DNA from: an uncultured Verrucomicrobiae bacterium
Lineage (GTDB): Bacteria; Verrucomicrobiota; Verrucomicrobiia; Chthoniobacterales; UBA10450
DNA length: 64,000 bases
Assembly (NCBI GenBank): GCA_963756875.1
Contig: CAVWPA010000003.1
Coordinates: 1,088,001-1,152,000, forward strand
Reading direction: 5' to 3'
How positions within the stretch are numbered: position 1 is the first letter of the stretch; every line of letters begins with the position of its first letter. This document shows positions 9,968 through 40,574 of this stretch, piece by piece. A model generated the notes under the pieces. It was not told the origin of the DNA. It worked only from the letters and a program-made list of their open reading frames with translations, and made no database searches. The position numbers and the translations under genes were made by a program.

Positions 9968-10027
9968 GATGTGACCTCAGAAGAGGCGCGTAAGCTGCCG
10001 TCCAACGGCGCGCAGGTCAAGCGATTC

Positions 10028-10150
10028 TTTGCCCGCGAACAGCGCGAATGTGCGCGAATAGAAAATTGAAAATGTAGGAACGCCGCGCCGCGGCGTCCGG
10101 ACGGCTCAAGTTCCGATTATTCGTGTTAATTCGTGGGATTCGCGGGCAAA
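10028..10150. repeat. Inverted CGCGAA/CACGAAT array pair (empty GxxExxY-type ends) enclosing a REP
   Basis: TTTGCCCGCGAACAGCGCGAATGTGCGCGAAT ... ATTCGTGTTAATTCGTGGGATTCGCGGGCAAA; the outer 12 bp form a perfect inverted repeat. Confidence 0.7.
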
Positions 10151-10250
10151 GAAGTTCTTCACGGCTTGAACAGTAACGACGTGGCGTGGTCAAACTTATC
10201 TCTCGCAAAACACAGACCGCGCCGGCAAAATTGCCAAACAGATTAAAATC

Positions 10251-25496: not shown

Positions 25497-25590
25497 GCCC
25501 GCGAATCACACGAATCACGCTAAAATGTCGAGCCAGCAAATCGAATCTAAGAATTCCTATCAGTTCGCGTCAATTCCAGTTATTCGCGGG
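25497..25590. repeat. Inverted CACGAAT-type array pair (empty)
   Basis: GCCCGCGAATCACACGAATCACGCTAAA ... TTCGCGTCAATTCCAGTTATTCGCGGG. Confidence 0.65.
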
Positions 25591-28600: not shown

Positions 28601-28746
28601 GCGACGATTGGCTCAGAACCGTCGTTAGACGTCAATAACAATCACCTAAACAGCGGATTACGCGGATTAACACGGATTGACGTTCAATCGAGCATCTGGA
28701 ATCTAGTTATCGAATCCTAAGTCCCGCGAGTGCGGTCGATGATGTC

Positions 28747-32043: not shown

Positions 32044-32125
32044 AGAAAAGCGATTCTAGCGGTGCGCGTGACGACCGCAAGCGAGAGCGAAAGATCCTGC
32101 GGAACCGCGGATTACGCGGATCAAT

Positions 32126-32351
32126 TCCGGGGAGCGCACGCGCCTCGCGTGCTGCGTTCGGCGCCTCGCCGAATGATCTGCATCAGAGATTGGGTCCGCT
32201 AAATACGCCAAAGAACGCGAAAGATCGGAGGTCAGAGATCAACTTTCCCTTTTTAGCGTCGTTTCGCGTGTTTCGCGGATCGTCTTTTAGGTAAAAGTTC
32301 GCGAAGGCGGGGCGCCTTCGCCAGCACGCGAGGGCGCGTGCGCTCCCCGGA
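32126..32351. repeat. Family A palindromic element with a nested inverted array pair (32195-32279)
   Basis: TCCGGGGAGCGCACGCGCCTCGCGTGCTG...CAGCACGCGAGGGCGCGTGCGCTCCCCGGA. Confidence 0.8.
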
Positions 32352-34490: not shown

Positions 34491-34530
34491 TTTCATCGGC
34501 GGTGTGATTCGTGTGATTTGCGGGCAGGAA

Positions 34531-37173: not shown

Positions 37174-37463
37174 GCGGCTTTCCGCCGATATTTTTGAGGC
37201 TTTGAAGAAGTTCGTTCTATTATTTTTCTAGCTTCCAGATCGAGTTTAACCGTTTCTGCATACCAACTGATACTTCCTGAAAATCTGTTCTTCAGGCTCT
37301 TGTTAACCTTTTCGGATAATTGGGTGTGGGTAAGCTGCTTATTTTGCAAGGCGGACAAGATGGCTTTCTTAAGCGTCTCGTATTTCCCCTTGTCGATATT
37401 TTTCCCGCTCTTACCCAATGGGTGTTTGGTGAGTATTTTTTCTTCTGTCATTTGCCTCTCCAT
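37170..37463 (-). CDS. DUF6958-like small basic protein
   Basis: HPLGKSGKNIDKGKYE, FSGSISWYAETVKLDLEARKIIER; visibly more AT-rich than its neighbours. Confidence 0.7.
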   Translation of the reverse strand: MERQMTEEKILTKHPLGKSGKNIDKGKYETLKKAILSALQNKQLTHTQLSEKVNKSLKNRFSGSISWYAETVKLDLEARKIIERTSSKPQKYRRKAA

Positions 37464-37479
37464 TCATGATTGACGACTA

Positions 37480-38448
37480 ATGAACACGAATCACACGAAT
37501 AGCGGAATGACTTTTTGCCGATGGATTGGGGTTTCGATGGTATGTGCAGGAACGATACTTGCGCGGCCGCCGGGCGGCCCAGGCGGGCCTCCCAACAATA
37601 GCCGTGTGAAAATGGATCTTCCATCGCGGGTGTCGATCCGCACCGAAGGCGAACGCCGGATCATCGAGAGCAATGGGATTCCCGACCATGAAACGGGGAC
37701 GTTTCCCGGCCCGGGAAATCCCAATGCGATCATGGCGCAAAATTATCACTTTGAAACCACAACGCATCCCACGAAAGCGGCCCATCCCATGTCGATCCGG
37801 AGGTGGCTTTTTGGCGTCGCCATCGACGGCGTGGTGTTCGATCCCGGGACTGCGGATTACTGGCGCAACGACCGCAATTCCGTCTGGAACGTGGAAGGAA
37901 TCATCGACGGACGGCGCACGTTGGGGATCGATTGGAGCGACGCGCACGTGCAACCAAACGGCGCCTATCATTACCACGGCGTCCCCTGGGGCATCCTGCA
38001 AAAACATCATGCGGAAAAAAAGATGTTCCTGGTTGGGTGGGCGGCGGACGGGTTTCCGATCTACGGACCGTACGCCTACAAGGATCCGAATAATGCTTCG
38101 AGTCCGGTGGTTGAAATGAAATCGTCGTACCGGCTGAAGAGCGGAATGAGGCCCGCGGGGAACGAGGGACCGGGAGGACGTTACGACGGAACGTATACCG
38201 GCGATTACGAATATGTAGCAGGGGCGGGAGATTTGGATGAATGCAACGGACGCACGGGAGTGACGCCGGAGTTTCCAGGAGGGACGTATTATTATGTGGT
38301 GACCGAAACCTTCCCGATCGTGTCCCGTTATTTCCGTGGGACACCCGACCCGAGTTTTCGGCATCCGTTCGATCCCGCGCGCGGACGCGGCCCGGGCGGA
38401 CCAGGAGCACCGGGCGGTCGGCCGCCACCGCCATTCCGTAACCACTAA
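37480..38448 (+). CDS. YHYH-domain secreted protein
   Basis: SNGIPDH, FGVAIDGVVFDP, AHVQPNGAYHYHG, GWAADGFPIYG, DLDECNGR; start 37480 or 37507. Confidence 0.9.
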   Translation: MNTNHTNSGMTFCRWIGVSMVCAGTILARPPGGPGGPPNNSRVKMDLPSRVSIRTEGERRIIESNGIPDHETGTFPGPGNPNAIMAQNYHFETTTHPTKAAHPMSIRRWLFGVAIDGVVFDPGTADYWRNDRNSVWNVEGIIDGRRTLGIDWSDAHVQPNGAYHYHGVPWGILQKHHAEKKMFLVGWAADGFPIYGPYAYKDPNNASSPVVEMKSSYRLKSGMRPAGNEGPGGRYDGTYTGDYEYVAGAGDLDECNGRTGVTPEFPGGTYYYVVTETFPIVSRYFRGTPDPSFRHPFDPARGRGPGGPGAPGGRPPPPFRNH

Positions 38449-38871
38449 TAAACACGAATGGACACGAATGACGGAAAGCTGGTGGCCAAAGAAGAGGTGT
38501 TTCGCATTGTCGGCTGTGCGATCGAGGTTCTTAACGCGCTTGGGCACGGCTTGGTTGAAAAGCCATACGAAAATGCGTTAGCGGTAGAGTTTGGTCTGCA
38601 AAATATGCCTTTTCGGCAGCAGCCTTCGTTCGACGTTTTTTATAAGGAGCATAAGGTAGGTCTCTTCATTCCCGACTTAATCGCATTCGACACCGTTGTG
38701 GTGGACACAAAGGTGATTGATCGAATCACCGATCATGAGCGTGGATTGATGCTGAACTACCTTCGAATCACGAATCTGCGCGTTGGAGTTGTCCTGAATT
38801 TCAAACGTCCCAAACTAGAGTGGGAGAGAATTATTTTATGAATTTGTGTTCATTCGTGTCCATTCGTGGTT
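38440..38871. mobile_element. Candidate element: GxxExxY gene flanked by 30-bp imperfect inverted repeats
   Basis: 38440-38469 AACCACTAATAAACACGAATGGACACGAAT versus reverse complement of 38842-38871 AACCACGAATGGACACGAATGAACACAAAT (25/30 by eye). Confidence 0.55.
38458..38841 (+). CDS. GxxExxY protein (PD-(D/E)xK nuclease superfamily)
   Basis: GLVEKPYENAL, IPDL...VVVDTK, LNYL, GVVLNF. Confidence 0.92.
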   Translation: MDTNDGKLVAKEEVFRIVGCAIEVLNALGHGLVEKPYENALAVEFGLQNMPFRQQPSFDVFYKEHKVGLFIPDLIAFDTVVVDTKVIDRITDHERGLMLNYLRITNLRVGVVLNFKRPKLEWERIIL

Positions 38872-40574
38872 AGAGATCTAGGCGGCGGGCCGTCGTAGCC
38901 ATGCTTGACCGGATCGATTCGCCGCATCGGTTTCTCGCGGGTTTGTTCTTCGATCACGTGTGCCACAAGTCCGGGAGTTCGCGCGATCATGAAGATTCCG
39001 TTGAACGCCGCCGGGTCCATTCCCAGATCGGCAAGGATGGCGCCGATCGCGCCGTCTACGTTGATCGGCAGCGCTTTTTTCGCATCGGCGAACGATTTCT
39101 CGACGGCTCGCGCCGCTTTCATGTGCGCTCCGTCGACGCCGGCCTTCCGCGCCAGCTCGAACAAACGTGCCGTGCGCGGGTCCCTGGTGTGATAGCGATG
39201 GCCAAAACCCGGCATGCGGTCGCCGCTCTCTCTCATCTCCGCCAGAGTGCGTGTAGCCGCTTCATCCATTGAAATGGATTCGCACGTGGCGCGGTCCGCG
39301 ATCTTTTTTAGTTGTCGGGCGCAATCTTCGATCGCGCCGCCATGATGACGATTGATCGACATGATTCCGGCGGCGACCGACGCGCTGAGCGACGCGCCGG
39401 TGGACGCAACCGTTCGCGCGGCCAACGCGCTCGGCGGCGTCGCGCCATGATCGATCGACGATACCAGGATCGCATCCATCAATTGTCCGATCGCGGGCGA
39501 CGGCAGTTCGCCGGTCAAAATTAAATACACCGCTGCGCCAAATGAAACGCGTCCCATCAGATCGGCGATGTCATATCCGCGCACGGCGACCCGGTTCGGT
39601 TCGATTTGCGTTACTGCGGTGTTCCAGACCGCATTCTTGTCAGTTTCGCTCATAAGACTCTGTCCTTTCATTTGCTTGAGAATTTCAACCACGGCATCCG
39701 GCAGGTCGCCGAACGCATCGACTACGGTGGCGCCTGCTTCGCGCAGCGCTTTCACTTTGCCAGCGTGCGTGCCCCGACCGCCTTCAATGATCGCTCCCGC
39801 GTGACTGAAACGCGTGCCTTCGCGTGCCGCTTTACCGCCGATATACGCAATCACCGGCTTCGTCATTTTTCGATCGCGAATCAGTTGCGCCAGTTCCTCT
39901 TCCTGTGACGAACCAATTTCGCCAAAGATGACGACGGCTTCGGTGAGCGGGTCGGCTTCAAACATCAGAGCCGCGTCGGGGATACGAATTCCAAGAACGG
40001 CGTCGCCGCCAATGTGCGCGATGGTTGAAATGCGCACGCCGGCTTGCCCGAGATAGTAGCCGGTGCTCGAAGCCATCCCGCCGGATCGACTGATCACGCC
40101 AACACCTTTCGGAATGCCCGGCTTGAACCATTGCTTCGCACTTTCGGCGCGACCGCCGATCATGCCGGCCACGGCCTTGCCCGGGCTCAACACTCCAAGC
40201 GTGTTCGGTCCCAGAAAAATCGCGCCATTCGCTTTGGCCGCGGCGGCGATCTCCATGGCGTCCCATACTGGAACGCGATCGGGCACGAGCACGGTCAGCT
40301 TGATTCCCGCGTCGATGGCGGAAATTGCCGCTTCCTTCACACCCGCGGCGGGCACAAAGATTACGGAGATGTCGATTTGGCCGAGAGCCTTTACCGCGTC
40401 CTGCGGCGTATTGAACACGGGCACGCCGAAGACGGCCTGTCCGCCTTTACCCGGTGTGACGCCGGCGACCACGTTGGTTCCGTACTCGCGCATGAGGCGC
40501 GTGCGCGCCCGGCCTTCGCGGCCAGTGATTCCCTGCACCAGGACGCGCTTGGTTTCGTCGATTAAAATTGCCAT
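38850..40574 (-). CDS. SucD-like CoA-ligase alpha domain fused to a citryl-CoA-lyase/citrate-synthase-like domain (AclA-like)
   Basis: VLVQGITG, GVTPGKGG, GPNTLG, SRSGG, phospho-His FSHAGA; C-terminal DHGATPPS, HHGGAI, PGFGHR, INVDGAI. Confidence 0.9.
   Translation of the reverse strand: MAILIDETKRVLVQGITGREGRARTRLMREYGTNVVAGVTPGKGGQAVFGVPVFNTPQDAVKALGQIDISVIFVPAAGVKEAAISAIDAGIKLTVLVPDRVPVWDAMEIAAAAKANGAIFLGPNTLGVLSPGKAVAGMIGGRAESAKQWFKPGIPKGVGVISRSGGMASSTGYYLGQAGVRISTIAHIGGDAVLGIRIPDAALMFEADPLTEAVVIFGEIGSSQEEELAQLIRDRKMTKPVIAYIGGKAAREGTRFSHAGAIIEGGRGTHAGKVKALREAGATVVDAFGDLPDAVVEILKQMKGQSLMSETDKNAVWNTAVTQIEPNRVAVRGYDIADLMGRVSFGAAVYLILTGELPSPAIGQLMDAILVSSIDHGATPPSALAARTVASTGASLSASVAAGIMSINRHHGGAIEDCARQLKKIADRATCESISMDEAATRTLAEMRESGDRMPGFGHRYHTRDPRTARLFELARKAGVDGAHMKAARAVEKSFADAKKALPINVDGAIGAILADLGMDPAAFNGIFMIARTPGLVAHVIEEQTREKPMRRIDPVKHGYDGPPPRSLTTNGHE

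Follow-up and report, generated by a model that had tools for sequence, protein, structure and literature searches.

A gene for a small nuclease-fold protein of the GxxExxY family, closely enclosed by two inverted arrays of short repeats, raises the question of whether gene and arrays form one unit and, if so, of what kind. The locus lies in a stretch of 64,000 nucleotides (the window; contig CAVWPA010000003.1, positions 1,088,001 to 1,152,000) of the 2.69-Mb genome of an uncultured Verrucomicrobiae bacterium, termed G000. Other G numbers denote relatives, of which G002, G007 and G014 are unpublished. The original prediction, made from the letters of the window alone, had proposed an autonomous element with empty derivatives, analogous to RAYT genes and their repetitive extragenic palindromes (REP). 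Our analysis leads to a reading to which we give an even chance of being right, namely a compact, ancient and widespread cassette of a nuclease gene and its binding sites, which has moved many times and is kept because protein and arrays work together. In the window the cassette is composed of three features:

38440..38471, forward strand: left array at the gene-start side, three units at 10-nt spacing, an ACTAAT variant outermost followed by two ACACGAAT units
38458..38841, forward strand: GxxExxY gene, 127 amino acids (aa), PD-(D/E)xK fold, with E34, Y37, D73 and D83-x-K85
38842..38872, reverse strand: right array at the gene-stop side, reverse complement of the left array

The gene is thus bracketed by inverted arrays of three ~10-bp units, as had been predicted, and the overlap of the arrays with the neighbouring genes was also described correctly. 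The left array contains the stop codon of a YHYH gene (38446-38448) together with the GxxExxY ATG, which lies in the inner units at 38458, and a convergent AclA-like gene takes its last six residues (TTNGHE) and its stop codon from the right array. AclA orthologues of relatives terminate 3-6 residues earlier. The GxxExxY gene occupies the entire space between the arrays, its stop codon adjoins the right array, and the 127-aa nuclease is the only open reading frame (ORF) inside the cassette. No promoter-like site was found on the sense strand within the cassette, and as the arrays leave no room between them, the gene seems to be without a promoter of its own. The cassette is positioned between the YHYH and AclA-like genes, i.e., between protein genes and not in rRNA, and an Rfam scan of 37300-39000 gave no match.

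Assignment of the protein to the GxxExxY family with a PD-(D/E)xK fold was borne out by profile scores and by a structural model. The window protein exceeds the cut-offs of both TIGR04256 (114.8 bits vs 35) and PF13366, or PDDEXK_3 (108.1 bits vs 22). Across 30 sequences, residues E34, Y37, D73 and K85 do not vary and E83 hardly does, being D in the window protein. The AF2 model has a pLDDT of 94.7. Among solved folds, lambda exonuclease, Cas4 SSO0001, 3ijm and Hjc come closest to it, each as a weak match (E 1.8e-3 or worse), and these structural neighbours are generic PD-(D/E)xK nucleases. Searching solved structures by sequence returned none under E 0.4, with T7 endonuclease I at E 0.8. A profile search for the family yielded 38,945 clusters at 50% identity with E 0.001 or better. 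PF13366 appears as 'Unknown' in a 2012 superfamily survey (PMC3424549). Many top-scoring family members are proteins of 250-295 aa with two GxxExxY domains in tandem, a form which hints at a dimer as the working unit.

The arrays were scored by local alignment of the inverted arms flanking a gene, with thresholds of 32 for the relatives and 28 for a broad sample. The window cassette obtained an arm score of 41, and a value of 32 or more was attained by just 4 of 2000 340-bp intervals drawn at random from G000. The unit ACACGAAT is present in 9 copies in the window against 2.5 expected, a count attained in one of 100 shuffles, and 68 copies of the three-unit pattern CRCNRAD x3 were counted in G000, in comparison to one in each of three shuffles. 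All five GxxExxY paralogs of G000 are flanked by inverted arrays, each with a unit of its own (CACGAAT, CACGGAT, CACAGAT, CGCCAAA or ACGAAGG). Beyond G000 the family is present in 28 of 40 relatives (29 of 41 genomes when G000 is included), with 1-11 copies per genome. A set of 34 loci, consisting of the five from G000 and the one or two best from each of 28 related genomes, contained 28 with an arm score of at least 32; without the loci from the unpublished G002 and G007, the figure was 26 of 32.

The same layout was found far outside this group of relatives. For the broad sample, one genome per species was scanned with the motif PGLLE[ST][VA]YE, which stems from a seven-sequence alignment and covers that sub-family only. 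The scan gave 80 loci that span about 25 phyla, with two archaeal lineages among them, and that show a protein identity of 52-64% across phyla; 79 loci were scorable, one flank being too short. A score of at least 28 was recorded for 59 of the 79 and of at least 32 for 51, compared to one and none, respectively, among 151 control intervals shifted by 750 bp. Overall, control rates for the layout range from 0.2 to 0.7%. The units are mostly CRCRRAG with a period of 8-10, and 44 of the 70 loci with regex-defined arrays on both sides show 3+3 units. The association between gene and arrays is therefore general, extending over G000, its relatives and the broad sample, and GxxExxY genes elsewhere do not turn out to lack such flanks. 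Chance as the origin of the arrays was ruled out by the shuffle, random-interval and shifted-interval controls. Some elements are nested or clustered, each arm being a complete gene-less pair or double array of 85-90 nt (L092:~1001-1200 and ~1549-1750; L071; L026).

The lineage of this one cassette was followed by scanning metagenomes with the protein from the window. The scan returned 80 loci with 79-91% aa identity, distributed over at least 12 flank contexts (30, 20, 7, 6, 4, 4, 3, 2, 1, 1, 1 and 1 loci), and the cassette ends TAACCAC...GTGGTTA are identical in all contexts inspected. The neighbourhood of HD, DUF6958 and AclA genes is common to 30 of the 80 loci. Twelve relatives lack the cassette at the AclA site: the 3' end of AclA is directly joined to DUF6958 or HD in G016, G019, G014 (unpublished), G004, G015, G020 and G022, and other short inserts are found in G021, G017, G024, G009 and G008. 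G000 itself is cassette-free at sites orthologous to two other contexts. At the first of these, the filled allele starts within the upstream stop codon (GAT T/AACCAC vs GAT TAG in G000); at the second, a REP-type pair occupies the place in G000 where the cassette sits in the filled allele. The comparison of filled and empty alleles that had been suggested as a check thus places the cassette in many contexts and identifies orthologous sites without it. Contigs from sequencing runs contained no empty allele; the array pairs seen there had spacers of 7 or 19 nt and belonged to other organisms of a second sample. One soil DNA sequencing run matches 21% of the sampled words, and no RNA run is among the matches listed.

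The gene does not always point the same way. It is inverted relative to AclA in 4 of 28 AclA-match loci (L188 1501-1881, L189 1501-1881, L222 278-658 and L225 250-630), and in three of these four the outer array units retain their flank-specific form, which indicates exchange inside the arrays. On the other side of the cassette in the window, two further features were mapped:

37471..37500, forward strand: outer array, direct copy of the left array including the odd ACTAAT first unit; contains the YHYH start codon
37480..38448, forward strand: gene of the YHYH family (PF14240), flanked on both sides by direct copies of the array; apparent cargo

The arm near 37472 had been predicted and exists, but it was taken as solo, although it is a direct copy of the left array. 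It forms the far end of the whole insert, a boundary deduced from the empty sites of relatives, and the YHYH gene accordingly lies inside an array-bounded insert. YHYH was present in none of the 30 metagenome loci with AclA context and was not found in any of 24 same-family genomes. As the AclA context is common to 30 loci that all lack YHYH, the cassette is old at this site and YHYH a later arrival, which looks like cargo captured at an array.

Both partners of the cassette are conserved. In comparison to 22 chosen relatives, the gene shows a nonsynonymous divergence (dN) of 0.05-0.13 with a synonymous divergence (dS) above 1; the median dN/dS is 0.048 over 15 computable pairs, the other seven being saturated. 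As judged from these ratios, the GxxExxY gene is under strong purifying selection. Arm conservation was analyzed in those 61 of the 80 close relatives that carry AACCAC at both ends, which gave the consensus AACCAC-N-AAT-nn-ACAC-N-AAT-nn-ACAC-N-AAT. Here, conservation reaches 85% or more at 23 of 31 arm positions, where arm-to-arm identity is 0.96. At the eight variable positions, i.e., the linkers and the central base of every unit, arm-to-arm identity is 0.43 vs 0.52 expected for independent arms. Similarly, arms of the broad sample match at 94% in the cores and at 53% in the linkers. Purifying selection on the arrays thus operates at the level of the motif. Since the variable bases do not covary from arm to arm, it is a phased motif that is conserved, as for a protein-binding site, rather than complementarity. 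In the sense RNA, arm mismatches were not shifted towards G:U (66 vs 90, with 163 transversions in addition), and an RNA wobble signature was therefore rejected.

Protein and array type diverge together. On a tree of 32 proteins the unit class changes 11 times, in comparison to 16-23 times (mean 20.8) when the labels were shuffled 300 times. Loci were labelled by eye; one locus received no label, and L015 and L033, being broken or partial, were excluded. As kin have common labels, this tracking reflects co-inheritance or co-evolution rather than recognition. In a residue-to-base test, one protein column was linked to core base 5 with a mutual information of 0.51 (shuffle maximum 0.44). For core bases 2 and 4, the best columns gave 0.32 and 0.54, with 95th percentiles of the shuffles at 0.34 and 0.52 and maxima at 0.37 and 0.64. 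Covariation between residues of the GxxExxY protein and bases of the array is, from these alignments, suggestive only.

Arrays also occur without the gene. The window holds the following examples, for the first three of which no strand is assigned:

10026..10151: gene-less inverted pair, CGCGAAT/CACGAAT units, 59-nt spacer
25498..25590: gene-less inverted pair, degenerate, with CGCGAAT, CACGAAT and CGCTAAA units
32197..32277: gene-less inverted pair, CGCYAAA / CGCGAAA sub-type, 29-nt spacer
28649..28680, forward strand: solo array, three CGGATT-type units
34497..34524, reverse strand: solo array, CCGCAAAT and CACACGAAT units

A further solo arm lies at 32103. The three pairs listed by the original prediction are hence real, and so are its arms at 28649, 32103, 34502 and 37471-37500. 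Across G000, we counted about 32 inverted pairs (four with the gene and a few of the total false) and 22 solo arrays, which include some false positives in coding sequence; the array sub-types correspond to the units around the resident paralogs. Gene-less pairs behave as insertions, as the pair at 10026-10151 is absent from the orthologous intergenic site, 140-170 nt shorter, in G015, G008, G006, G013 and G012. The site GTCAAGCGATT^CTTGAAC (window ~10020-10030) carries various small repeats in G000, G010, G011, G009 and G003, is bare in five relatives and appears to be an insertion hot spot. G000 additionally contains very many gene-less pairs of arrays with 8-bp units of the AAGCWCCA and AACGYCSA types (e.g., C1:107311-107570 and C3:785049-785143), for which no associated gene was identified.

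A second family of small genes has a similar layout. Genes for four-helix-bundle proteins (TIGR02436, S23p) were found in 34 of the 41 genomes, and 26 of 30 loci carry inverted tandem arrays with a score of at least 28 (25 of 28 without the loci of G007 and G014). The array period is 7 in this class, vs 8-10 for GxxExxY. In G000, all three four-helix-bundle genes are bracketed by 6- or 7-bp units such as CTCWTG and CAGAGGA (C1:485516-486005, C3:103861-104319 and C1:687878-688478). In Coxiella, a 428-nt intervening sequence (IVS) of the 23S rRNA is reported to contain an S23p ORF; three GACAGAT heptamers stand in tandem ahead of this ORF, and RNase III cuts at the first of them (PMC4990558). 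With its S23p ORF and tandem heptamers, this IVS looks like a member of the sister class.

Other bracketed genes were seen in G000. RAYT-like genes (IS200-like with an HxH motif, assigned by eye) lie between REP-like palindromes at C3:1385475-1386073, 1591734-1592413, 1596619-1597150, 1631617-1632209 and 1641493-1642032, and gene-less REP-type pairs are numerous, e.g., at 32126-32351 of the window. Small GIY-YIG-like genes, also recognized by eye, lie within inverted repeats at C1:528466-528846, C1:541467-541805 and C3:436696-437042 and look like a third kind of repeat-bracketed small nuclease gene.

How might such a cassette work? We propose that a gene of ~125 aa for a GxxExxY nuclease fills the gap between inverted arrays, usually of 3+3 phased units (here CAC-N-AAT per 10 bp), and that the arrays would serve as sequence-specific binding sites of the encoded protein, in a partnership like that of a transposase with its terminal inverted repeats (TIR) or of RAYT with REP. 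The cassette inserts at gene ends and in intergenic DNA, where its termini TAACCAC...GTGGTTA yield a stop in every frame, within or just past the array, and, lacking its own promoter, it would be expressed by read-through from a neighbouring gene. Breaks made by the nuclease at cognate arrays may then be mended through recombination or through gene conversion. On such a homing-like route the gene would be copied into array pairs in either orientation, and the arrays could capture adjacent DNA such as YHYH. Binding, cleavage and this route of mobility are inferred. Break-induced recombination is favoured by the lack of target duplications at gene-bearing copies, both orientations at one site, the retained outer units and the position of YHYH between duplicated arrays. 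A bolder version would make the cassette a new class of prokaryotic mobile element, whose sole protein, a PD-(D/E)xK nuclease of ~125 aa, recognizes terminal phased arrays and spreads by break-induced copying, and which forms one superfamily of 'array-bracketed mini-cassettes' with the S23p/heptamer cassettes, the 23S rRNA intervening sequences among them; this version is tentative, and we would sooner doubt it than assert it.

Several results weigh against the reading of a nuclease that works with its own arrays, and some of them suit an alternative in which an unrelated transposase mobilizes the arrays in trans, as miniature transposable elements in their own right, the GxxExxY gene being a passenger or a homing-type parasite of array pairs. 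Relative G035 has a recently amplified gene-less element of 164 bp (L145:139-302) in five copies at least 99% identical, with arrays that are identical to the right arm of the window at 26 of 30 positions and ends that reach 5-22 nt past the arrays. This family has 5-bp target duplications, exact in four of six copies and a single mismatch off in one more, and G035 yielded neither a GxxExxY nor a PF13366 gene, an absence that stays unproven in an assembly 93% complete and in 280 contigs. At gene-bearing cassettes, exact 5-nt repeats were seen at 11 of 78 loci vs 5 of 78 in the control, which is not significant, and three comparisons of filled and empty alleles revealed no target duplication. 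The two kinds of element may thus move differently, and the G035 duplications together with the abundance of gene-less arrays mean that array pairs may also move by another route or enzyme. The predicted tie between array abundance and the gene holds in part: across 41 genomes the array count follows GxxExxY copy number (Spearman 0.61, where kin are not independent and three genomes are unpublished), but arrays are numerous in the 12 genomes without a TIGR04256 match, of which 11 contain them (0-57 arrays, median 12.5), and PF13366 was not found in the five of these 12 that were checked for it. Furthermore, none of the spacers of 24 gene-less pairs in G000 resembled the interior of the cognate gene-bearing copy (0/24 at p<0.05), by which deletion from resident genes was rejected as the origin of these pairs and the notion of 'empty derivatives' was not upheld. 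The analogy to an autonomous RAYT/REP-like element is apt in architecture, but the gene-less pairs are not recognizable derivatives. The four-helix-bundle class has the same architecture without a nuclease motif, and hence an enzyme for mobility is not required within the element itself. What speaks against movement in trans is that no larger transposase-bearing element with such ends emerged from a genome-wide inverted-repeat scan of G000, nor was one seen in G035, that the array type is specific to each gene family, with protein clades tracking unit type, and that the cores of gene-adjacent arrays are kept over saturated synonymous divergence, which would be hard to explain for a mere passenger. 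We consider this alternative unlikely, though worth taking seriously. Also to be set against the cassette reading are the roughly one quarter of broad-sample loci (20 of 79) without detectable arrays, the unit period, which ranges from 8 to 11 bp between clades and makes helical phasing not universal, and the threonine of one column, which goes along with a G at position 5 of the core in 38 of 38 cases, of which only four independent tree pairs remain (sign test not significant).

Two further explanations, both improbable in our judgement and about equally so, leave mobility aside or behind. In one, the element acts at the RNA level like a 23S rRNA IVS: the arrays would form a stem in the read-through transcript and RNase III would excise the ORF-bearing RNA, thereby limiting harm to the host and controlling translation. 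Indeed, the predicted fold is closed by a stem of the two arrays, in which the ATG is sequestered (dG -158 kcal/mol, z -4.2), a cassette without its own promoter fits, and the heptamers of the Coxiella IVS described above provide a precedent. Opposed to this are the missing arm covariation at variable positions, linkers that match so much less often than cores, the missing G:U excess and the lack of an Rfam match; moreover, a simple inverted repeat would be enough for a stem and tandem units would be superfluous. In the other, a nuclease domesticated by the host for defence, repair or addiction would use the arrays as operators, regulatory sites or protective decoys, and mobility would be a matter of history. 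Long vertical persistence and purifying selection, i.e., low dN/dS over saturated dS and an AclA site kept in 30 of 80 related loci, fit a host-useful or addictive role no less than a mobile one, and the low copy number of 1-11 per genome is in line with domestication. It is harder to reconcile with one lineage in at least 12 contexts, a patchy presence among relatives, 52-64% identity across phyla, multiple transfers of PF13366 as reported in the 2012 survey (PMC3424549), and dozens of gene-less arrays far from any GxxExxY gene.

How, then, does the proposed nuclease/binding-site cassette relate to known systems? RAYT, or TnpA-REP, is a Y1 HUH transposase gene; REP is a short imperfect palindrome, and a REP doublet is called a REPIN. 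The cassette resembles this system in its single small gene flanked by inverted copies of a cognate repeat that is dispersed over the genome, in dispersed inverted doublets with short spacers next to solo copies in one genome, in several gene/repeat sub-types per genome and in long vertical persistence. In contrast, its protein is a PD-(D/E)xK nuclease matching only PF13366 and TIGR04256, not a HUH tyrosine transposase; its repeats consist of 2-4 tandem units of 8-10 bp, of which only the whole pair is inverted, instead of single imperfect palindromes; and it conserves a phased motif without arm covariation. With the 23S rRNA IVS it has in common a small ORF tightly bracketed by short tandem repeats in inverted arrangement and a sporadic distribution. 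However, the IVS protein is TIGR02436 and not a nuclease, with period 7 instead of 8-10, and the cassette does not lie in rRNA and lacks the RNA-pairing signature that was looked for. The published account of the Coxiella IVS calls it a selfish element of unknown mobility (PMC4990558).

TIR transposons and miniature inverted-repeat transposable elements with several transposase-binding sites per end are similar in their terminal inverted repeats of repeated sites, gene-less short copies and presence/absence polymorphism, and the G035 family with its 5-bp duplications adds to this likeness. The cassette differs in having no DDE, serine or tyrosine recombinase, no significant excess of target duplications at gene-bearing copies and gene-less spacers unrelated to the gene. 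Finally, free-standing homing endonuclease genes include members with a PD-(D/E)xK fold. They share with the cassette a small nuclease gene that would spread between sites without target duplication and may come to lie in either orientation, but the proposed target of the cassette is a dispersed repeat and not one conserved host gene. No description of the cassette was found in the literature searched, subscription journals lying outside its reach, and apparently we are dealing with an undescribed kind of selfish or mobile DNA.

The architecture of the cassette gives the large orphan family GxxExxY / PF13366 a concrete candidate role, i.e., binding and cutting of its own flanking arrays. If confirmed, a restriction-fold nuclease would be added to the few enzymes by which dispersed repeats are maintained in bacteria, and thousands of unusual peptides at the ends or beginnings of annotated genes (e.g., ...TTNGHE* and MNTN...) would be accounted for. 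It would also provide a link to the origin of 23S rRNA intervening sequences, which would be explained if the superfamily reading is true. Pairs of phased, clade-specific motifs and their proteins may, again if confirmed, become a source of small programmable DNA-binding modules.

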